A model generated the notes under the pieces. It searched no databases and was not told the DNA's origin. It saw nothing but the letters and a program-made list of their open reading frames with translations. A program made the translations under genes and the position numbers. 64,000 bases of DNA from Minisyncoccota bacterium (GTDB taxonomy: Bacteria > Patescibacteriota > Minisyncoccia > Moranbacterales > UBA2206): contig JARLIA010000005.1 in the NCBI GenBank assembly GCA_031291955.1, positions 209,057-273,056 of the forward strand. The letters run 5' to 3'. How positions within the stretch are numbered: the stretch's first letter is position 1; every line of letters starts with the position of its first letter. Positions 6,404 through 60,450 of the stretch are shown here, piece after piece.

Positions 6404-8647
6404 TTATTTCTCAAACTTACATTCCTTATTTGAACATTTGACTTTTCCTTTGGCGGCAAAAGTCAGGAGACTGCCACACTCTGGGCATTTTTCTCCGGTC
6501 GGCTTGGTCCAGAGGGCAAATTTGCAATTGGGGTAGTTGTTGCAGCCGTAAAAGACCCGACCCCGCTTGGATTTTCGTTCGACAATTTCTCCGACGCCGC
6601 ACGTGGGGCATTTGACGCCGGTCTTGGTTTCGATTTTTTTGATGTTTTTGCAATTGGGATAATTGGAGCAACCGAGAAACATGCCGTATTTTCCGCGTTT
6701 GATCACCATTGGGGCGCCGCAGAGTTCGCACTTTTCCGTGCCGGTCTCTTTTTCGATTTTTTCCTGCAGTTCTTTTTCCGCGGCCGTTTTTTCAGTATAG
6801 CGGCACTCCGGATAGTTGGAGCAAGCGATGAATTTTCCAAACCGCCCGAATTTGACGATCAGGTCACCGCCGCAATCGGGACACTGGCGATCCAGTTTTT
6901 CCTGGTAGTCTTCCTTCTTGACTGTCTTGGCTTTGCTTTCGATATTTTTGTGAAAAGGTTTGTAGAATTCGGCAATGACTGGCACCCAATCTTTCTTGCC
7001 TTCGGCGATTTTGTCAAAGTCTTCTTCGATGCCGGCCGTAAAGCCAGTGTCGACGATGTCAGGAAAGTGTTCAACTAGAATGTCATTTACCAGCAGGCCG
7101 ATTTCCAAAGGGATTAGCCGCTTCTCATCGTTACGCTCGACATATTTCCGGTCAATGATAGTGGAAATTGTCGGGGCGTAGGTGGATGGCCGTCCGATCC
7201 CGTTTTCTTCCAGGACTTTCACGAGACTGGCTTCGGAATAGCGAGGCGGAGGCGTTGTTGATTTTTCTTCTTTGTCAATTTTCGCGATTTCCAGCTCGTC
7301 AGTTTTCTCTATCGGCGGCAAAAGGTTTTCGGCCGTTTTTTTGCCGGAAAAAACTCTAAGGAAACCGTCGAATTTGATGGTTGAGCCGCTGGCGCGGAGG
7401 AGATAAACATTTTTATTCTTCGCGCTGTCGGCTTTAGCTTCCATTTTTACGGAATTGAAAACCGCCGGCGCCATCTGGGTGGCGATCATCCGTTCCCAGA
7501 TGAGTTTGTAGAGCCGGGCTTGCTCGGGCGGCAATTTGCCCTTCAATTCTTCTGGGGTCGTTTCGGGATTGGCCGGCCGGATGGCTTCGTGAGCTTCTTG
7601 CGCGCCCTTGGATCTGGTCTTGAAAAAGCGGGGACTCTCCAACGCGTAGTTTGCCCCAAATTTTTTCTTGATGACTTTTTGGGCGGAAATCATCGACTCG
7701 AGCGAAAGATTGACCGAGTCGGTCCGCATGTAGGTGATGTGGCCGCCTTCATAAAGCTTTTGGGCGGCAATCATCGTTTTCTTGGCCGAATAGCCCAAGG
7801 TGTTGATGGCGGCTTGCTGGAGCGTGGAGGTGGTGAAGGGAGGGCTTGGATGACGCTGTGTTTCTTTCTGTGCCACGTCGGTCACTTCAATGCGGGAATT
7901 TTTGAGGTCGGCAATAATTTCATTGGCCGAATTTTCATCGGTGATGATGGTCTTTTTGGTTTTGTAGTCTCCGGCAAAAAGTTTCAGCGTTACGACCTGC
8001 TCGATTTTATCGCCGTTTTTTTCAATCAGGTCGGTCGCGAAAGTTTCGTCCGCGCCGATTTTCTTGAGTTCCAAGGGAACGGTCCAATAATTTTCGCTTT
8101 TGAATTTTTCTATTTCTCGTTCGCGTTCGGAGATGAGGCGGAGTGCCACAGACTGGACGCGCCCGGCCGAAAGCCCGCGCCGGACTTTTTTCCACAAGAA
8201 AGGCGACAGTTCATATCCGACCAAACGGTCGAGCACCCGCCGGGCCTGCTGGGCATCCACCAGATTAAGATCGATTTCTCGGGGACTGCCCAAAGCTTTC
8301 TCGATAGCCGATTTGGTAATTTCATGAAAAACGATGCGGGGAGTATTGCCCTTAAGATCCAGCGCGGAAACCAGGTGCCACGAAATCGCTTCTCCCTCGC
8401 GGTCTTCGTCAGTCGCGAGAATCACTTCGTCAGCTTTTTTAGCCAGTTTTTTGAGTTCGCCGACTCGGTCGATGGCTTCCTTGGGGATGACGTATTCGGG
8501 CGTGAAATTATGTTCGATATCGATACCCATATCCTTTTTGGGGAGATCGCGGATGTGGCCATAGGAAGACTTTACGGTAAAAGACTTTCCCAGGAATTTG
8601 GAAATGGTCTTGGCTTTGGTGGGGGATTCGACGATAACTAGTTTCAT
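6404..8647 (-). CDS. topA: DNA topoisomerase I with C-terminal Zn-ribbon repeats
   Basis: MKLVIVESPTKAKTISKFLG Toprim start; Cys4 repeats in the C-terminus; ATG at 8647 preferred over the TTG at 8662. Confidence 0.9.
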   Translation of the reverse strand: MKLVIVESPTKAKTISKFLGKSFTVKSSYGHIRDLPKKDMGIDIEHNFTPEYVIPKEAIDRVGELKKLAKKADEVILATDEDREGEAISWHLVSALDLKGNTPRIVFHEITKSAIEKALGSPREIDLNLVDAQQARRVLDRLVGYELSPFLWKKVRRGLSAGRVQSVALRLISEREREIEKFKSENYWTVPLELKKIGADETFATDLIEKNGDKIEQVVTLKLFAGDYKTKKTIITDENSANEIIADLKNSRIEVTDVAQKETQRHPSPPFTTSTLQQAAINTLGYSAKKTMIAAQKLYEGGHITYMRTDSVNLSLESMISAQKVIKKKFGANYALESPRFFKTRSKGAQEAHEAIRPANPETTPEELKGKLPPEQARLYKLIWERMIATQMAPAVFNSVKMEAKADSAKNKNVYLLRASGSTIKFDGFLRVFSGKKTAENLLPPIEKTDELEIAKIDKEEKSTTPPPRYSEASLVKVLEENGIGRPSTYAPTISTIIDRKYVERNDEKRLIPLEIGLLVNDILVEHFPDIVDTGFTAGIEEDFDKIAEGKKDWVPVIAEFYKPFHKNIESKAKTVKKEDYQEKLDRQCPDCGGDLIVKFGRFGKFIACSNYPECRYTEKTAAEKELQEKIEKETGTEKCELCGAPMVIKRGKYGMFLGCSNYPNCKNIKKIETKTGVKCPTCGVGEIVERKSKRGRVFYGCNNYPNCKFALWTKPTGEKCPECGSLLTFAAKGKVKCSNKECKFEK

Positions 8648-8649
8648 GA

Positions 8650-8807
8650 TAAAAATTTTCAATTTTCAATTTTCAATTTTTCTGGCTGCGCCAGATCTCG
8701 CATAGCGAGACAAACAATTCAATAATTTTTTAATTTATCAAACGTTAGAAAATTTAGTTATTGGAAAATTCGAAATTGTTTAGAAATTAGAAATTGAAAA
8801 TTAGAAA
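8650..8807 (-). repeat. upstream element copy 1: heptad arms (GAAAATT/AATTTCT)n around a ~100-bp conserved core with two small hairpins (TCTCGCTATGCGAGA, CTGGCGCAGCCAG), ending a few nt upstream of the topA start
   Basis: >90% identical by eye to 23055-23213 and 25912-26069 in reverse orientation; heptad arms form imperfect terminal inverted repeats. Confidence 0.6.
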
Positions 8808-17691: not shown

Positions 17692-17699
17692 AAATCCGA

Positions 17700-17835
17700 A
17701 GCCCGAAACCCGAAACCCGAAATCCGAAACAAATTTGAAATCAGAATGATTAAATCCAAAACCGTTTTGAATTTATGATTTTGATATTGTTTCGAATTTC
17801 GCACTTCGAATTTCGAATTTATTTTAGAGAGGAGG
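17700..17835. repeat. inverted blocks of CGAAA-type heptad repeats (cccgaaa)n … (ttcgaat)n
   Basis: cgaagcccgaaacccgaaacccgaaatccgaaac … gtttcgaatttcgcacttcgaatttcgaattt. Confidence 0.4.
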
Positions 17836-17842
17836 TTTCACT

Positions 17843-18097
17843 ATGATTGAAGTCAAAAAGAAAGATCGTGAATCGTCAGAATCTTTGATCCGGCGTTTTT
17901 CTCGGCGCGTCCAACAGTCCGGCGTTTTGCCGCAGGCGCGGAAATCGCGTTTCCGGATAGAAAAGAAAACCCGGCGCGAAGTGCGCCAAGGCGCCATGTA
18001 TAAAGAAAAAGTCAGGAAAGTTGTGAGCAAGCTCAAAAAAATGGGCAAGTTTGACGATCAGAATTTCAAGAATGTTAAAAAAAAGTTAGTAAAATAA
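17843..18097 (+). CDS. rpsU: 30S ribosomal protein S21 with C-terminal basic extension
   Basis: MIEVKKKDRESSESLIRRFSRRVQQSGVL…; AGAGGAGG RBS upstream. Confidence 0.8.
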   Translation: MIEVKKKDRESSESLIRRFSRRVQQSGVLPQARKSRFRIEKKTRREVRQGAMYKEKVRKVVSKLKKMGKFDDQNFKNVKKKLVK

Positions 18098-18100
18098 CCG

Positions 18101-18190
18101 ATGCGAAACTACGAAACGCGCGCGAATCTACGAACAAAAACGTTGATTCGCAAGTTCGTAGATTCGCATTTAATTCGTAGGTTCGAATCG
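18101..18190. repeat. CGAAA-type heptad palindromic block; the ORF track merges it into the following gene
   Basis: cgaaactacgaaacgcgcgcgaatctacgaac … ttcgcaagttcgtagattcgcatttaattcgtaggttcgaatc. Confidence 0.4.
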
Positions 18191-18193
18191 GGT

Positions 18194-18643
18194 ATGTTAA
18201 AACAAAAAATAGCCGAGGATCTCAAAGCGGCCATGAAGGCCGGCGATGCGGCCAAGCGCGATACGCTCCGGATGCTGGATTCGATGGTGAAAAACGTCGA
18301 GATTGAAAAGAAGAAACGCGAAGAGGGACTCTCTGACGCTGAAGTTCAGGAAGTGGCGGCGCGGGCGGTGAAACTTAGGAACGATGCCATTGTCCAATAT
18401 GAGAACGGCGGCCGGCCGGAACTGGCAGAAAAAGAGAAAAGGGAAGTGGAGATACTTTCGACTTATCTGCCGGAGCAAATGGACGAATCGGAGACGAGGG
18501 CGCAAGTGAAAGAAATCATTTCTTCGCTCGGCGCAACGTCCAAATCTGAAATGGGAAAGGTGATGGGCGCGGCCATGGGAAAACTCAAAGGCCAAGCTGA
18601 CGGAAACTTGGTTAAAAAGATTGTGGAGGAAGAATTGAAATAG
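18194..18643 (+). CDS. GatB/YqeY domain protein
   Basis: MLKQKIAEDLKAAMKAGDAAKRDTLRML typical YqeY N-terminus; ATG at 18194. Confidence 0.8.
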   Translation: MLKQKIAEDLKAAMKAGDAAKRDTLRMLDSMVKNVEIEKKKREEGLSDAEVQEVAARAVKLRNDAIVQYENGGRPELAEKEKREVEILSTYLPEQMDESETRAQVKEIISSLGATSKSEMGKVMGAAMGKLKGQADGNLVKKIVEEELK

Positions 18644-22446: not shown

Positions 22447-22604
22447 TTGTTAGGTTCTGTTAAAAAGTTATCCACAGCCAAGAATTTTCAATAAAAATCG
22501 GAGATTTCTGAGGACTTGGCAGATTTTCTGGTTGTGGTATAATTGGTTTGCGATACACAATATATTGAGTAAAATCAGATTTTATCGCATATTTCTGAAA
22601 TAAT

Positions 22605-23054
22605 ATGATCTGTCCATTCTGCAATTACAATGAAACCAAAGTCGTCGATTCGCGCGACACCAACGATGGCAAAACCACCCGCCGCCGCCGCGAGTGTCTG
22701 AAATGCCATGTCCGATTCTCGACTTACGAAGAAGTAGAACTTCTGCATCTTACCGTTTTGAAAAGAGATGGGCGGAAAGTCGATTATGATAAAAATAAAA
22801 TTGAATCGGGAATTCGGAAAGCCCTCGAAAAACGTCCGGTGTCGGAAGATAAGTTTGCCAAGCTCCTGGGGGACGTGGAATATTGCTTGCAATCATTGGA
22901 GAAATCGGAGGTGAGCACCAAGGAAATCGGGAAATTAGTTTTGAAAAAGTTGCGGGAGTTGGATGAAGTGGCCTACGTGCGGTTCGCGAGCGTCTATAAA
23001 TCGTTCGGGAGCATTGAAAGCTTCAAGAAGGAGTTGGATACGTTTGATAAATAA
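22605..23054 (+). CDS. nrdR: transcriptional repressor NrdR (Zn-ribbon + ATP-cone)
   Basis: MICPFCNYNETKVVDSRDT…RRRECLKCHVRFSTYE…. Confidence 0.9.
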   Translation: MICPFCNYNETKVVDSRDTNDGKTTRRRRECLKCHVRFSTYEEVELLHLTVLKRDGRKVDYDKNKIESGIRKALEKRPVSEDKFAKLLGDVEYCLQSLEKSEVSTKEIGKLVLKKLRELDEVAYVRFASVYKSFGSIESFKKELDTFDK

Positions 23055-23213
23055 TTTCTAATTTTCAATTTCTAATTTCTAAACAATTTCCAATGCTTCA
23101 ATGACTAAATTTTCAAACGTTTAATAACTTGAAAAATTATTGAATTGTTTGTCTTGCTATGCGAGATCTGGCGCAGCCAGAAAAATTGAAAATTGAAAAT
23201 TGAAAATTTAGTT
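23055..23213 (+). repeat. upstream element copy 2 (heptad arms + conserved core), directly ahead of the nrdD start
   Basis: >90% identical to the 8650-8807 (reverse complement) and 25912-26069 cores; ends …gaaaattgaaaattgaaaatttagttgactATG. Confidence 0.6.
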
Positions 23214-23217
23214 GACT

Positions 23218-25455
23218 ATGGGAGGTGAAAACAAAAAGGGGAAAAACAAAAAGCTTGCCCGCAACGCTACGCGTAGCGTTGCAGGCGGGGGGGTCAAGGT
23301 CGAAAAAGGAAAAACGAAAAAAGAGCCGGAAAACAGGGTGACTAAAGTTGTGAAAAGAAGCGGGCAAGTAGTGGCTTTTGATCCGGGGAAAATAGCCAAG
23401 GCGGTCAAGAAGGCTTTTTTGGAAACCAAGGAAGGAACGGCCGAAGACGCCAAACAGGTGGCAGAGAAAGTGGCTAAGCTTCTCAATAAGAATTACAAAA
23501 AAGGCTACATTCCGGAAATCGAAGAGCTCCAGGATATGGTGGAACGGGTACTCATGATTTTAGATTTCGACCAGACGGCCAAAGCTTACATCCTCTATCG
23601 CGAACAGCACCGGAAGATCCGCGAGACGGAAGAATCACTGAAAGAAGCGGTTGATTTGGTGGACAAGTATATTCAGGAGATCGACTGGAAAGTGAAAGAG
23701 AACGCCAACATGGCCTATTCACTCCAGGGACTCAACAACTATGTTTCTTCGATTGTTACTTCCAAATATTGGATGAACCGGGTTTACACCAAAGACATCC
23801 GCGAAGCCCACGAGGGCGGAGATTTTCACATTCATGATCTTCAGCTTTTGGCGGCTTATTGCTGCGGCTGGGACCTGCAGGATCTCTTGCGGCGGGGGTT
23901 TACCGGTGTATCTGGCAAAGTGGCCTGCAAACCGGCCAAACATTTGGGCTCGATTCTCGGCCAGATGGTGAACTTCACCTACACTACCCAGGGTGAAGTA
24001 GCTGGTGCCCAGGCTTTTTCCAACTTTGATACGCTCCTGGCGCCGTTCGTTCGAAGCGACAAATTGACTTATGAGGAAGTGAAGCAGCAGATCCAGTCTT
24101 ATGTCTTCAATATGAATGTGTCTACCCGGGTCGGTTTCCAGACGCCTTTTTCCAACATCACGATGGATATTACTTGTCCCAAAAATTTGAAAGATGAAGC
24201 GGTGATTGTTGGCGGCGTGCCGCAAAAAGAAAAATACGGCGAGTTTCAGGAGGAAATGAATATGATCAATCGAGCCTTTGCCGAAGTGATGACGGAAGGC
24301 GACGCCAATGGCCGGATCTTCACTTTTCCCATTCCGACCTACAACATCGGCAAGGATTTCGATTGGGGCGACAAAAAATTTGATCCGATCTGGGAAATGA
24401 CGGCCAAATATGGCATCCCGTATTTTGCCAACTTCATCAATTCAGACATGGATCCGGACGACGCCCGCTCAATGTGCTGCCGGTTGCGGTTGGACAATCG
24501 CGAACTTCACAAGCGCGGCGGCGGACTGTTTGGCGCTAATCCTTTGACTGGATCGGTCGGCGTGGTGACGATCAATCTGCCGCGCATTGGATATTTCTCA
24601 AAAAATAAAAAAGAGTTCTATCAAAAACTGGATCGCCTGATGGATATTGCCAAAAACAGCCTGGAAACGAAAAGGAAGATGGTTGAAGGATTGACCGAGA
24701 ACGGTCTGTATCCTTATACGAAATTTTATCTGGCTCCCATCAAAATGCGCCGCGGGGAATACTGGGCCAACCATTTTTCTACCATCGGACTCATCGGCAT
24801 GAACGAGGCCTTGCTCAACCTGACCGGGAAAGACATTGCTTCGAAAGCGGGGCAAAAGTTGGCCGAAGAAATTTTGGTCCACATGCGCGATCGGATCATT
24901 GGCTACCAGAAAGAAACCGGCAATCTCTATAACCTGGAAGCGACGCCGGGCGAAGGCACATCCCATCGCTTGGCCGGAATCGACCGCAAGAAATATCCCG
25001 AGATGGTCTTTGCCAACGACAAAGCAGTGAGAAACCAAGATGCGACCCCGTATTATACCAATTCCTCACAACTCCCGGTCTCCTTAACGGAAGATATTTT
25101 CAGTGCTTTGGATCTTCAAGACAATCTTCAGACCAAATATACCGGCGGCACAGTCCTGCATGGATTTTTAGGTGAACGGCTTTGGGACATCGAGACAACC
25201 AAAAAACTGGTCCGGAAAATTGCCGAAAATTACGCCCTGCCGTATTTCACGCTCACTCCGACCTTTTCCATCTGTCCGGTGCACGGCTATATTTCCGGCG
25301 AACACACTACGTGTCCCAAGTGCGTCATCGAACAGAAGTGCGAAGTTTATTCGCGAGTGGTTGGCTACATTCGCCCAGTTGAGCAATGGAACGGCGCCAA
25401 ACAGGCGGAATTTTCCGATCGAAAAGAGTTTGTAGTGACGGGTAAGAAAAAGTAA
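23218..25455 (+). CDS. nrdD: anaerobic ribonucleoside-triphosphate reductase (class III RNR) with ATP-cone and C-terminal glycyl-radical/Zn-ribbon
   Basis: ATP-cone (VTKVVKRSGQVVAFDPGKIAKAVKKAF), C-terminal CPVHGY…CPKC… and RVVGYIRP glycyl-radical motif; start ambiguous (ATG 23218 with a K-rich leader, or in-frame GTG 23338). Confidence 0.9.
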   Translation: MGGENKKGKNKKLARNATRSVAGGGVKVEKGKTKKEPENRVTKVVKRSGQVVAFDPGKIAKAVKKAFLETKEGTAEDAKQVAEKVAKLLNKNYKKGYIPEIEELQDMVERVLMILDFDQTAKAYILYREQHRKIRETEESLKEAVDLVDKYIQEIDWKVKENANMAYSLQGLNNYVSSIVTSKYWMNRVYTKDIREAHEGGDFHIHDLQLLAAYCCGWDLQDLLRRGFTGVSGKVACKPAKHLGSILGQMVNFTYTTQGEVAGAQAFSNFDTLLAPFVRSDKLTYEEVKQQIQSYVFNMNVSTRVGFQTPFSNITMDITCPKNLKDEAVIVGGVPQKEKYGEFQEEMNMINRAFAEVMTEGDANGRIFTFPIPTYNIGKDFDWGDKKFDPIWEMTAKYGIPYFANFINSDMDPDDARSMCCRLRLDNRELHKRGGGLFGANPLTGSVGVVTINLPRIGYFSKNKKEFYQKLDRLMDIAKNSLETKRKMVEGLTENGLYPYTKFYLAPIKMRRGEYWANHFSTIGLIGMNEALLNLTGKDIASKAGQKLAEEILVHMRDRIIGYQKETGNLYNLEATPGEGTSHRLAGIDRKKYPEMVFANDKAVRNQDATPYYTNSSQLPVSLTEDIFSALDLQDNLQTKYTGGTVLHGFLGERLWDIETTKKLVRKIAENYALPYFTLTPTFSICPVHGYISGEHTTCPKCVIEQKCEVYSRVVGYIRPVEQWNGAKQAEFSDRKEFVVTGKKK

Positions 25456-25542
25456 AAAGTAATTATTTTCAATACGAAGTAATTATTAAGTAAATCGAGC
25501 GCAATGAGCGGATCCCCATTGCGTTTCGAAAAAAACAAAATT

Positions 25543-25803
25543 ATGGAAAAGACAATTTGCCATGATTGCGGGCGGGAATTGGCGCATAACGATGAATTTA
25601 TGCCGTACGAGGCGGCCGGACAGAAATTTGCCAAGTGTCGGGCTTGCCACGAGATTGATCCGGTGCTCCGAGATTTTCAGGAAACGGAGGTTTATTCCCG
25701 GGTGGTTGGCTATATCCGTCCGGTCAAGCAATGGAACGGCGCCAAGCAAACGGAATTTTCCGACCGGAAAGAATTTGTTCTCGCAGACAACGGGTGCTGT
25801 TAA
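25543..25803 (+). CDS. small Zn-ribbon + glycyl-radical-motif protein duplicating the NrdD C-terminus
   Basis: CHDCGRE…CRACHEID… then EVYSRVVGYIRPVKQWNGAKQTEFSDRKEF, ~90% aa identity to the NrdD tail with synonymous DNA divergence. Confidence 0.5.
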   Translation: MEKTICHDCGRELAHNDEFMPYEAAGQKFAKCRACHEIDPVLRDFQETEVYSRVVGYIRPVKQWNGAKQTEFSDRKEFVLADNGCC

Positions 25804-25824: not shown

Positions 25825-25867
25825 GGGGCAATATCTGCCATAACAGGCAGATATTGCCCTTATTTTA
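25825..25867 (+). terminator. strong rho-independent terminator
   Basis: ggggcaatatctgcc-ataac-aggcagatattgccc + TTATTTT. Confidence 0.7.
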
Positions 25868-25911: not shown

Positions 25912-26069
25912 AAATTTCTAATTTTCAATTTCTAATTTCTAAACAAATCCCAATTTTTCAATGATTAAATTTTCAAACGTTTAATAACTTGAAAAATTAT
26001 TGAATTGTTTGTCTCGCTATGCGAGATCTGGCGCAGCCAGAAAAATTGAAAATTGTGAATTGAAAATTT
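25912..26069 (+). repeat. upstream element copy 3, directly ahead of nrdG
   Basis: Same core as copies 1 and 2; ends …gaaaattgtgaattgaaaatttATG. Confidence 0.6.
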
Positions 26070-32226: not shown

Positions 32227-32364
32227 GTAATTTTTTAAATTTCTAATTTCTAATTTCCAATTTCTAAACAATTTCAAATTTCAAATGACTGAATTCCTAA
32301 ATTGAAAATTGAGTCATTGATAATTGTTTGAAAATTGAAAATTGAGAATTGAAAATTCTCAATT
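32227..32364. repeat. heptad-repeat element (AATTTCT)n…(GAAAATT)n abutting the rnc start
   Basis: aatttctaatttctaatttccaatttctaaacaatttcaaatttcaaatgactgaattc…gaaaattgaaaattgagaattgaaaattctcaattATG. Confidence 0.5.
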
Positions 32365-37110: not shown

Positions 37111-37172
37111 TAATTTTTCAAGATTGATCGGACCAATCGGACAGATCGGACCTATCAAGCTTATATGATTTT

Positions 37173-52992: not shown

Positions 52993-53973
52993 ATGACTAT
53001 TCATAAACCAGTATTGCTGAAGGAGACTATTGAACTTTTAAATCTAAAAAAAGGAATGACTGTCGTGGACGCCACTCTGGGGGGAGGCGGACACGGGCGC
53101 GAAATTCTGGAGAGAGTTGGTGATGGCGGGCGATTAATTGCCTTTGATCTGGATATTCATGCTATCGAAAGTTTCGCGGAATTTTCAATTTTCAATTTTC
53201 AATTTTCAAACAATTATCAAATTCCAATTTACAAATTCCAAAACATAATTCTGGCTAATGCTAATTTTACAGATTTAGAGAAAGTGTTGGAAGTTTTGGA
53301 AATTGAAAAAGTCGACGCGGTAATGGCGGATCTGGGGTGGTCGAGCGACCAATTGACCGGGAAAGGAATGAGTTTTCAGGCGGATGAGAAATTGGACATG
53401 AGATTGGACGAGAGTCAGGAGCTGACGGCCAAGAAAATAGTCAATGAATATGCTGAAGAAGACTTGGGAAAAATATTAAGAGAATATGGGGAGGAGAAAT
53501 TTTGGCGAGTTATTACGCGAAGAATAACTGAATATAGAAAAAGCAAAGGAATAGAGACCACGCAAGAGCTGGCGGAAATCATAAAGAGTGCCGTGCCGCC
53601 GAAATACCGTTACGCTAAGATCCATCCGGCCACCAAGACGTTCCAGGCCATCCGCATCGAAGTCAATCAGGAGCTGTCTAATTTGAAAAAATTTATACCG
53701 CAGGCAATCGAAGTTTTGGTTTCTGGCGGAAGACTGGCCATTATCAGTTTTCATTCACTGGAAGATCGAATTGTCAAGCATATGTTCGCGGAAGATGCCA
53801 GGGGAAGCATCTCCACGGATCCGATAACTGGACAAAAAATAGTGGAGCGCGCGCCGGTGACAAAACTTATCACCAAAAAACCGGTCGCGCCGGCGGAGGA
53901 AGAGATTGGAGAAAATCCGCGCGCCCGAAGCGCGAAATTGAGAGTCTGCGAGAGGTTACGAAATACGAAATGA
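52993..53973 (+). CDS. rsmH: 16S rRNA (cytosine1402-N4)-methyltransferase RsmH, carrying an in-frame repeat-derived insertion
   Basis: MTIHKPVLLKETIELL…DATLGGGGH; SAM-dependent methyltransferase fold. Confidence 0.85.
   Translation: MTIHKPVLLKETIELLNLKKGMTVVDATLGGGGHGREILERVGDGGRLIAFDLDIHAIESFAEFSIFNFQFSNNYQIPIYKFQNIILANANFTDLEKVLEVLEIEKVDAVMADLGWSSDQLTGKGMSFQADEKLDMRLDESQELTAKKIVNEYAEEDLGKILREYGEEKFWRVITRRITEYRKSKGIETTQELAEIIKSAVPPKYRYAKIHPATKTFQAIRIEVNQELSNLKKFIPQAIEVLVSGGRLAIISFHSLEDRIVKHMFAEDARGSISTDPITGQKIVERAPVTKLITKKPVAPAEEEIGENPRARSAKLRVCERLRNTK
53160..53250 (+). repeat. (GAAAATT)-type heptad repeat block inserted in-frame inside rsmH
   Basis: gaattttcaattttcaattttcaaacaattatcaaattccaatttacaaattccaaaac encodes FAEFSIFNFQFSNNYQIPIYKFQN. 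Confidence 0.5.
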
Positions 53974-54094
53974 ACGAACTACGAAACGCTTATGTCATCC
54001 TTTTTCGTACTTTCGTATTTTGTATTAATTTCGTAGTTCGTAAATAAAAAAAACATAAACAAAAGCATTAATATTTCAGGGGGACTGAAGATTA
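53974..54094. repeat. ACGAAA-type heptad palindromic block
   Basis: cgaaatacgaaatgaacgaactacgaaacg … tttcgtactttcgtattttgtattaatttcgtagttcgtaaa. Confidence 0.4.
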
Positions 54095-58941: not shown

Positions 58942-59079
58942 TCTATGAAAAAATTTTCAATTTACAATTTTCAATTTTCAATCAATTTTCAATTTATTAA
59001 TTTACAATGGCTAAGCAATGCAAATTGAAAATTGATACTTGAAAATTTATTGTAAACTGATAATTGAAAATTAATGCAA
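58942..59079. repeat. heptad-repeat (CAATTTT/GAAAATT) element between recR and dnaB
   Basis: aattttcaatttacaattttcaattttcaatcaattttc…caaattgaaaattgatacttgaaaatttattg…gaaaattaatg. Confidence 0.5.
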
Positions 59080-60450
59080 TTATTCAGCGTGTGCTCGCTC
59101 CAAGCTCTTGAATGTTGTTGAGTTTTCTTTGAAATAGAGTGAGATGCGGCCGACCGGACCGTTCCGGTGTTTGGCGATGTGGACTTCGACGATATTTTTG
59201 TTGGGCGTGTCCGGCTTTTCACGGTCTTCGCGGTAGAGGAACATCACTACATCAGCGTCCTGTTCGATTGATCCGGATTCGCGGAGGTCGGAAAGTTTCG
59301 GAATCTGAGGGCTGCGCGATTCGACGGCCCGAGACAACTGAGAAAGAGCGAGGACTGGAATATTCAACTCCCGGGCCAGTTGTTTTAAGGCGCGGGAAAT
59401 TTCCGAGATTTCGTTGACGCGGTTGTCGCCGCCGCCTTTCCGTCCTTCCATCAGCTGGAGATAGTCGATGATGATGAGTCCGACGTTGTGTTCCGACTGG
59501 AGCCGCCGAGCCATCGTGCGCATTTCCATGACGTTGGCCGAGCCCGCGTCGTCGATGAAAATCTGGGCTTCCGAAAGGACGCCCATGGCTTCGCCGATCT
59601 TTTGGAAATCGTTGTCTCCTTCGCCGGTTTTTAATCTTCCGGTTCGGAGTCGCCAAAGATCGACGTCCGATTCGGCGGCTAGCATTCTGTCAATTAGCTG
59701 ATCACTGGACATTTCCAAAGAGAAGATGCCTACTGGCACTTTTTGCCGGGTGGCAATCTGGCGGGCGAGATCGAGCGCCAGAGTGGTTTTTCCGATGGAC
59801 GGCCGGGCAGCCAGAATGACCAGATCTGATTTTTGGAAACCGGCCAGGATGTTGTCTAAATCCGGATATCCGGTCGGAATGCCGCGGAGCTGATGGTCGC
59901 CTTTATGCAGTTCGTCAATGCGATTGAAAGCCGCTTCCAAAATGGAGCGGATCGGCACGAAATCTTGCTTGACGAATTTTTGCGAAACAGCAAAAAGTTT
60001 CTGCTCGGCTTCATCCAACACTTTCTCCACGTCTTCGTCTTCCCGATATCCCAGTTCCAGAATTTCGCTGGCCGTCTCGATGAGTTTTCGCAGCGTTGAT
60101 TTTTTCTGGACAACTTTGGCGTAGTGAGTGATGTTGGCGCTGGACGGGATGGAATTGACAAGAGAAGTGAGATAGCTCGAGCCGCCGATCGCGTCAAGTT
60201 TTTTCTTTTCTTCCAGGCGGTTGGAAAGGCTTAGAACATCAATCGGTTCCCGATGTTCATAGAGCTCGATCATGGCCTCGTAGATCAGATTGTGGGCGTC
60301 TTTATAGAAATCGCCCATACGGATGAGGTTAGCCACTTTGATGATGGCGTCCTTGTCGAGCATTAAAGCGCCGAGGACCGATTGTTCGGCTTCGATGTTT
60401 TGCGGCGGGAGGCGCAGGTTGTCGTTGGAGTTGGAAGTTTTTGTGGCCAT
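59080..60450 (-). CDS. dnaB: replicative DNA helicase DnaB
   Basis: N-terminal domain (NIEAEQSVLGALML), Walker A GARPSIGKTT, RecA-like fold. Confidence 0.9.
   Translation of the reverse strand: MATKTSNSNDNLRLPPQNIEAEQSVLGALMLDKDAIIKVANLIRMGDFYKDAHNLIYEAMIELYEHREPIDVLSLSNRLEEKKKLDAIGGSSYLTSLVNSIPSSANITHYAKVVQKKSTLRKLIETASEILELGYREDEDVEKVLDEAEQKLFAVSQKFVKQDFVPIRSILEAAFNRIDELHKGDHQLRGIPTGYPDLDNILAGFQKSDLVILAARPSIGKTTLALDLARQIATRQKVPVGIFSLEMSSDQLIDRMLAAESDVDLWRLRTGRLKTGEGDNDFQKIGEAMGVLSEAQIFIDDAGSANVMEMRTMARRLQSEHNVGLIIIDYLQLMEGRKGGGDNRVNEISEISRALKQLARELNIPVLALSQLSRAVESRSPQIPKLSDLRESGSIEQDADVVMFLYREDREKPDTPNKNIVEVHIAKHRNGPVGRISLYFKENSTTFKSLERAHAE

Follow-up and report, generated by a model that had tools for sequence, protein, structure and literature searches.

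The three closely similar sequences that lie upstream of topA, nrdD and nrdG in the analysed stretch of DNA (64 kb in length, referred to here as the window) are probably copies of a composite, non-coding, dispersed palindromic repeat of a MITE/REP-like kind, which would be co-transcribed within operons and fold into a long hairpin, with a putative role in RNase III processing or mRNA stability. Judged from sequence comparison, the three copies belong to a family of intergenic palindromes with AATTTYC heptad arms in a Moranbacteria/Pacebacteria-like lineage of the Patescibacteria. The survey covered the 64 kb of the source genome and approximately 150 kb from relatives; contigs other than the window are designated by L numbers.

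The presence of three elements with more than 90% identity, reported in the first-pass annotation of this DNA, was borne out by MAFFT alignment and a repeat finder, with a pairwise identity of 92-95% over 157-159 nt. Their location upstream of topA, nrdD and nrdG was upheld with refined boundaries, and, as had been stated, each copy has the same orientation with respect to the gene that follows it. A 44-nt core pattern gave three matches, compared with 0.00 expected from 100 shuffles. Members of the family without a double hairpin are referred to as type A, and those with a nested 30-nt pair of GC hairpins as type B. The type-B copies and their hairpin pairs are as follows:

8653-8811, minus strand: copy 1, type B, filling the gap from the dprA stop codon (8808-8810) to the topA ATG (8647); nhmmer E = 1e-44.
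23051-23209, plus strand: copy 2, type B, from the nrdR stop codon (23052-23054) to 8-10 nt short of the nrdD ATG (23218).
25913-26069, plus strand: copy 3, type B, with its end abutting the nrdG ATG (26070); 95% identity by the repeat finder.
8681-8710, minus strand: double GC hairpin of copy 1, 30 nt and nested, a clean 30-nt insertion relative to type-A members.
23152-23181, plus strand: double GC hairpin of copy 2, with a stem change (C>T) that gives G.U on the gene-sense strand.
26012-26041, plus strand: double GC hairpin of copy 3, located by the hairpin-pattern search.

The internal organisation described earlier also holds: AATTTCT/AATTTTC heptads form the left arm and GAAAATT heptads the right, and between them lie the core and the two abutting hairpins. 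The paired hairpins, TCTCGC-TAT-GCGAGA and TCTGGC-GCA-GCCAGA, each comprise 6 bp with a 3-nt loop, and the corresponding pattern gave six matches against 0.62 expected. The arms of copy 1 (8646-8679 and 8784-8817) are 79% complementary over 34 nt, and represent terminal inverted repeats of the type seen in MITEs. The spacing between the final GAAAATT and the start codon had been given as 4-6 nt; it is actually about 0-10 nt, with 7 nt for topA, 8-10 nt for nrdD and 0-2 nt for nrdG. The proposal that the left arm supplies stop codons in all three frames was discarded, as the TAA triplets at offsets 0, 7, 21 and 28 fall in two frames only. TTG-extended open reading frames at 8662 and 15901 begin within arms, and these represent false start codons.

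The three copies are not alone in the window. In the type-A base element, which is approximately 120 nt long, an inner palindrome (AAACAATT...CAATGAC...ATTGTTT) is preceded by a T-rich heptad arm and followed by an A-rich one. Seven elements from four genomes were aligned end to end and share the plan of heptad arm, AAAC, AATTTCC, AAT..TTCAATGAC, an inner right half ending in ATTGTTTG, and heptad arm; the double hairpin is a clean 30-nt insertion in four of the seven (the three copies and one in L019). A family profile was built from seven elements of four genomes and used in an nhmmer search. The additional members in the window are:

15843-15909, plus strand: short arms-only member, from the signal peptidase stop codon (15845-15847) to the hisS ATG (15910); z = -3.2.
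32227-32364, plus strand: type-A member, from the nusB stop codon to the rnc ATG (32365); E = 5e-22, fold z = -2.8.
53177-53250, plus strand: left half of a member, in frame inside rsmH (52993-53973; MraW domain); E = 1e-5.
58949-59079, minus strand: diverged member, from the stop codon of the upstream gene (59080-59082) to the recR start (58941; RecR domains); z = -4.6.

Like the three copies, all of these members share one orientation relative to the genes, which counts against the dispersed-repeat reading. With a size of about 158 nt, and with three type-B and four related copies in 64 kb, the repeat is small, non-coding and multi-copy, as is expected of a MITE. The half element in rsmH lengthens a variable loop by approximately 12 residues when the protein is aligned to the MraW structure 1m6y. 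At the orthologous pre-hisS site of L013 (963-1083), a longer family member is present.

In the MAG GCA_031291895.1 (contig L011), the stretch from nrdR through the element to nrdD is identical to that around window copy 2. Family members were found in four other genomes, and the profile recovered them, together with the window members, before hisS and rpmF in L013, before rpmF in L017, and in L019 and L020. In L019, whose TopA is 89% identical, a full type-B copy (86% identity) follows topA in inverted orientation, and a short arms-only palindrome occupies the dprA-topA gap; L020 (TopA 83% identical) carries a type-A copy at the same post-topA place. Between topA and relA, L019 and L020 carry an element; the gap measures 9 nt in the window and 25 nt in L022, and is absent in L023. 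The nrd gaps differ among four genomes, with the relatives holding TACGAA-type, CAAAAAT-type or AATAxxC-type palindromes, or nothing. Empty sites were identified at nrdR-nrdD in L017, at nrdD-nrdG in L013 and in the pre-rpmF gap of the window. Orthologous sites at topA-relA and in the nrd gaps thus display the presence/absence differences that characterise MITEs. A TACGAA palindrome family also flanks nrdR in L013 and L016.

Scans of genome and metagenome collections with exact 21-mers returned chance matches and one real solitary double hairpin. The latter is located on an unrelated metagenome contig (L005), between a small gene and a terminator, and differs by one loop change; the 30-nt pair therefore behaves as an independent nested module. 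Exact-word scans undercount the family and its diverged copies, since L019 was missed for its differing loop. No double-hairpin match and no arm-plus-core pattern match was found among viral contigs, and a census extended through the proteins at the window edges returned only short contigs of the same organism. Short-read contigs break within the element (L008 and L009 start in the double hairpin, L010 and L012 end in the left arm, and the right arm opens L020 and L021), the behaviour to be expected of a repeat present in several copies.

The gene upstream of copy 1 encodes DprA, and that downstream encodes TopA, identified via the Toprim and Topoisom_bac domains of its homologues. The gene preceding copy 2 was correctly called as nrdR (Zn_ribbon_NrdR and ATP-cone domains), the identity of nrdD downstream was upheld, and NrdG downstream of copy 3 was recognised by Radical_SAM/Fer4_12. 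The homologues of NrdD and TopA are from Patescibacteria, with source names of Candidatus Pacebacteria, Moranbacteria and Parcubacteria. Copy 3 does not directly follow a gene, but lies about 50 nt past a hairpin that itself follows a small open reading frame (25504-25803):

25826-25859, plus strand: GC-rich hairpin/terminator upstream of copy 3, separating nrdG from nrdD and its mini-ORF; conserved in four genomes.

In the relatives, this hairpin is present at approximately 12200-12240 in L013, 9920-9965 in L016 and 7245-7290 in L017, and is preceded by an invariant AGATAG. The sequence of its inner stem differs among the four genomes while the pairing is kept. As nrdG of L013 starts 15 nt after the hairpin, its role may be attenuation and not full termination. 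Given this 15-nt distance and an nrdR-nrdD gap of 28 nt in L017, nrdR, nrdD and nrdG appear to be read from upstream promoters, which would make copies 2 and 3 intercistronic inserts. The three copies most likely lie inside the operons dprA-topA and nrdR-nrdD-nrdG and would therefore be transcribed in the gene sense. Of note within the same locus, the 99-aa open reading frame at 25504-25803, just after nrdD, duplicates the C-terminal glycyl-radical region of NrdD (Pfam NRDD, 1.5e-12), and the underlying DNA repeat (25342-25433 and 25687-25778) is 84% identical. L017 has a similar 113-aa open reading frame. The 99-aa product may supply the class III reductase with a spare-part glycyl radical domain. 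The N-terminus of nrdD (23218-23340) is a low-complexity, lysine/glycine-rich extension of about 40 residues before the ATP-cone; it holds a 13-bp GC-rich inverted repeat (hairpin 23257-23286), and an in-frame GTG at 23338 represents an alternative start. Most genes of the window have A/T-rich leaders. In several cases, such as those ahead of 52993 and 60450, a -10-like hexamer lies no more than about 10 nt from the start codon, a hint that the mRNAs are leaderless or have very short leaders. A missing Shine-Dalgarno sequence was dropped as a special feature of the element, as most window genes are without one.

The predicted fold of copy 2 on the gene strand had an energy of -36.5 kcal/mol (z = -2.8). 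The opposite strand folds about equally well, so folding energy does not distinguish RNA from DNA. In the consensus fold, the arm stem comprises 24 pairs with two 1x1 mismatches and closes a junction with the two GC hairpins; a stem of this length falls within the range of RNase III-type sites (approximately 20 bp or longer, double-stranded). The three copies differ mainly in the inner-left third, where 12 of the 15 variable columns fall within 45 of the 157 columns (P ~6e-5, for a region picked after looking); in the arms and the double hairpin there is almost no variation. Among the five known double hairpins, three of the five changes are in loops, and both stem changes result in G.U on the strand transcribed with the flanking genes, the inverted L019 copy included. 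The G.U-compatible changes and the clustered variation are a weak but consistent indication that the hairpin matters in the transcript. No compensatory pairs were observed in the three copies, a number of sequences too few for covariation analysis.

Under the preferred interpretation as a dispersed repeat, members occupy the stop-to-start gap of co-directional genes, usually from the stop codon itself. A type-B element would be transcribed with its operon, and its arms would pair as a stem of approximately 24 bp closing the double-GC-hairpin junction. The arm stem may act as an RNase III-type processing site or an mRNA-stability site separating the cistrons, and the palindromic shape would keep the stop and start codons close. 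REP elements, which stabilise upstream mRNA, and the T7 intergenic RNase III sites are known precedents. The proposed role in processing or stability is drawn by analogy with these and with the Correia elements (PMC10969869). An rnc gene is present in the organism, and is itself preceded by a heptad-armed hairpin.

The location of the palindromes raises the alternative that they are host-selected operon punctuation, namely old hairpins anchored at stop codons and acting as RNase III sites, 3' stabilisers or a means of stop-start coupling, with the three copies generated by gene conversion via the arms and not by transposition. In four of the six window members the upstream stop codon marks the start of the left arm, with one more within 10 nt; the same is true of approximately 10 of 12 palindromes of relatives whose junctions were read directly, whichever stop codon is used. 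When the window and relatives were combined, the left arm lay at a stop codon in approximately 14 of 18, and the distance to the next start ranged from 0 to about 65 nt. In the dprA-topA gap, a heptad-armed palindrome extends from the dprA stop codon in all four complete spacers (the window, L019, L022 and L023), with differing sequences, and the start of the L020 contig, truncated before topA, has the same right arm and junction. The pre-rnc gap contains a heptad-armed palindrome in each of the three genomes examined (the window, L013 and L017), and the pre-nrdG palindromes of the window and L017 share the left junction GCTGYTCA|AAT. Such conservation of position is less readily explained by random transposition than by long residence with replacement of the sequence, or by a host function. 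The alternative also accords with the significant folding of 14 of 15 other palindromes of the same class (z from -2.0 to -8.3), with stem changes that are G.U-compatible on the transcribed strand, and with the hairpin before rnc, which is reminiscent of the known autoregulation of E. coli rnc. However, the empty sites at nrdR-nrdD, nrdD-nrdG and before rpmF, together with the clean presence/absence difference at topA-relA, argue against it, the half element within the rsmH coding region looks selfish rather than designed, and compensatory double changes are lacking in the three copies. Host-selected punctuation was considered unlikely as the primary explanation. An extended version, in which stop-anchored punctuation hairpins are used by hosts across the lineage (for RNase III or stop-start adjacency) and carry exchangeable cargo, with the type-B double hairpin as a functional RNA- or protein-binding unit on topA, nrdD and nrdG, was judged unlikely.

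For the preferred reading as a dispersed repeat, spread would occur by copy-and-paste, either through transposition in trans or through conversion of palindromes already resident. Conversion or replacement of resident palindromes via the shared arms is as plausible as transposition. No consistent target-site duplication was found across the flanks of the three copies, where AT-richness makes 2-nt matches meaningless. No transposase with matching ends was seen in the window, in which the arms occur only at short elements, and a tblastn search of the 64 kb with the Y1_Tnp protein of L013 gave no match to a RAYT-like Y1 transposase. The L013 gene (4768-5433) encodes a 221-aa Y1 (IS200/RAYT-like) transposase between a CDPS/SET gene and ybeY, and the syntenic place in the window is without it. 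The notion of a MITE, offered in the first-pass annotation as a fallback, is the better description with regard to the heptad inverted ends and the location near genes, but neither the target-site duplication nor a cognate transposase was found, so that strict membership of the MITE class is at most putative.

The reading that had been placed first, of a shared operator or promoter for a regulon of Nrd and DNA-topology genes, was not supported. Its specific form would be that the type-B core, with its two 15-bp palindromes (TCTSGC-N3-GCSAGA), is an operator/promoter at which a dimeric regulator co-controls topA, nrdD and nrdG. In its favour, each of the three type-B copies stands before a DNA-metabolism gene, which with n = 3 could be due to chance, and the orientation is the same each time. 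Variation is largely confined to the inner-left part, with the double hairpin and right half almost unchanged, and each hairpin is also a 15-bp palindrome, a size that would be typical of a dimeric helix-turn-helix operator. The type-B copy of L019 again adjoins topA, though this locus was found by a TopA search. Furthermore, NrdR controls topA in Pseudomonas aeruginosa (PMC4409342); nothing in the present data connects the element to NrdR. No NrdR box (acaCwAtATaTwGtgt, up to three mismatches) was identified in any copy, and the only box in the 64 kb, ACACAATATATTGAGT at 22555-22570 (one mismatch), lies outside the copies, 12 nt after the -10 of a near-consensus nrdR promoter:

22516-22570, plus strand: control region of the nrd operon upstream of nrdR, with the promoter TTGGCA-16-TATAAT at 22516-22543 and the NrdR box at 22555-22570.

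A perfect DnaA box, TTATCCACA, is present upstream of this promoter at 22468-22476, and the promoter, NrdR box and upstream DnaA box are kept in the syntenic relatives L013, L016 and L017. On the evidence of these conserved motifs, the nrd operon is governed from the DnaA-box and NrdR-box promoter upstream of nrdR, which suggests joint control of nrdR-nrdD-nrdG by DnaA and NrdR. Any NrdR control of the operon would act at the conserved box on the nrdR promoter and not via the repeat.

Within the copies, no sigma-70 site scoring at least 9/12 (-35/-10 with 16-18 nt spacing) was detected on the gene strand. The best hand-found candidate in the element was TTCAAA-17-AATTAT (8/12), and a 10/12 sigma-70-like site is located upstream of copy 1, within dprA (8926-8899). 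The orthologous nrdR-nrdD and nrdD-nrdG gaps of three relatives, with NrdD 89-90% identical, are without the element. Moreover, the host element is a generic repeat that also precedes unrelated genes (hisS, rnc, recR and rpmF) and occurs inside rsmH, the L019 copy lies inverted after topA, and in L005 the double hairpin occupies a 3' region, with a small gene on one side and a terminator on the other. The copies at unrelated genes and the absence from orthologous sites in relatives are the outcome that the first-pass annotation had itself named as refuting a regulon and indicating a mobile repeat. The operator/promoter reading was considered very unlikely.

A multi-copy small RNA, in which the closing stem is cut and a core of about 100 nt with the two GC hairpins is released to act in trans, was considered highly improbable. 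In keeping with it would be the near-identity of the three copies, whose structured right half is conserved, the long flanking stem suited to excision, and the retention of the double hairpin in L019 and L005. Against it, Rfam gave no match, the element has neither a promoter nor a terminator to itself, and no target was identified; the sequence of the inner-left third is also free to vary, and the L019 element is antisense to its flanking genes. In the Rfam analysis, no family was found in the copies, gathering thresholds gave only two tRNAs across the window, and a permissive scan of copy 2 gave only chance-level matches (E >= 0.49); a riboswitch or other known RNA was set aside on these results. 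An intrinsic terminator was likewise discarded, as no terminator-like site was present in the copies and what comes after the double hairpin is an A-rich arm and not a U tract.

Other repeats were noted in the window. At 10302-10650 and 11948-12548 there are long non-coding arrays of tandem stem-loop units of approximately 70-80 nt with variable palindromic stems, the interiors of which carry CTGA and ATGATG, resembling box D and box C. The arrays flank two open reading frames (10651-11325 and 11342-11947), one of which matches an IS110 C-terminal domain (Transposase_20, 1.2e-7), and the locus (10302-12548) resembles a stem-loop-array TIGR-Tas locus (PMC12045711). A TIGR array was rejected as an explanation of the three copies, which are dispersed and not tandem. 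In L023, a 447-aa Transposase_20 gene adjoins dprA. A pair of palindromes at 1981-2061 (between parA- and parB-like genes) and 13501-13574 is 93% identical, with TGATTTN-type arms, and contains TTTCACGTGA, which resembles the core of a parS site. Additional intergenic palindrome families were identified at 17692-17842, 18090-18199, 37111-37160 and 53974-54056, with short-period arms (CCGAAAC heptads, CGAATCTACGAA and ATCGGAC).

Repeats of this small, dispersed and palindromic kind are familiar from proteobacteria, neisseriae, pneumococci and rickettsiae; for Patescibacteria, no description of such repeats was found in the searchable literature. The closest resemblance in form is to several of these. 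Like the REP/BIME-RAYT elements of enterobacteria and Pseudomonas, the present element includes short GC-rich extragenic hairpins in intercistronic or 3' positions, species-specific in sequence and conserved in kind; its 30-nt double hairpin acts as an independent unit (nested in type B, solitary in L005), and a RAYT-like Y1 gene is present in L013. It differs in that the window is without a RAYT gene, the two hairpins are direct neighbours and not an inverted REP doublet, and the AT-rich heptad arms dominate the element. The Correia elements of Neisseria (CREE/NEMIS) are similarly palindromic, non-coding and multi-copy, approximately 100-160 bp in size and situated near genes, with inverted ends that fold, and are co-transcribed with their neighbours, as the present element probably is. 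For Correia elements, cutting by RNase III at the inverted ends and effects on expression have been documented (PMC10969869, PMC2229807), whereas RNase III cleavage of the present element is a prediction. The ends of Correia elements are unique 26-bp inverted repeats with a TA duplication, whereas the present element has tandem heptads with no evident duplication and is anchored at a stop codon.

The modules with a variable number of short tandem sub-units recall the pneumococcal BOX element, and the piece of the family in frame within a protein gene, rsmH, recalls the Rickettsia palindromic elements (RPE) (PMC10969869, PMC3049150). There is no sequence relationship with either; the sub-units of BOX are 45 nt as opposed to 7 nt here, and the present family has one in-frame case. 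Inverted ends built of short tandem repeats are also a feature of the eukaryotic Foldback transposons. Foldback elements are kilobases in size and come with associated transposases, and the likeness to them is confined to architecture. With respect to an NrdR operator, the element adjoins nrdR and precedes the nrd genes and topA, but has no NrdR box. The tandem-heptad inverted ends, the stop-codon anchoring and the nested hairpin module are three unusual features of the element.

For annotation, the message is that the near-identical upstream sequences in this DNA do not make a regulon. In compact genomes with tiny intergenic gaps, a repeat that extends from stop to start breaks short-read assemblies and creates false start codons, and as a class such repeats could shape the expression of operons.
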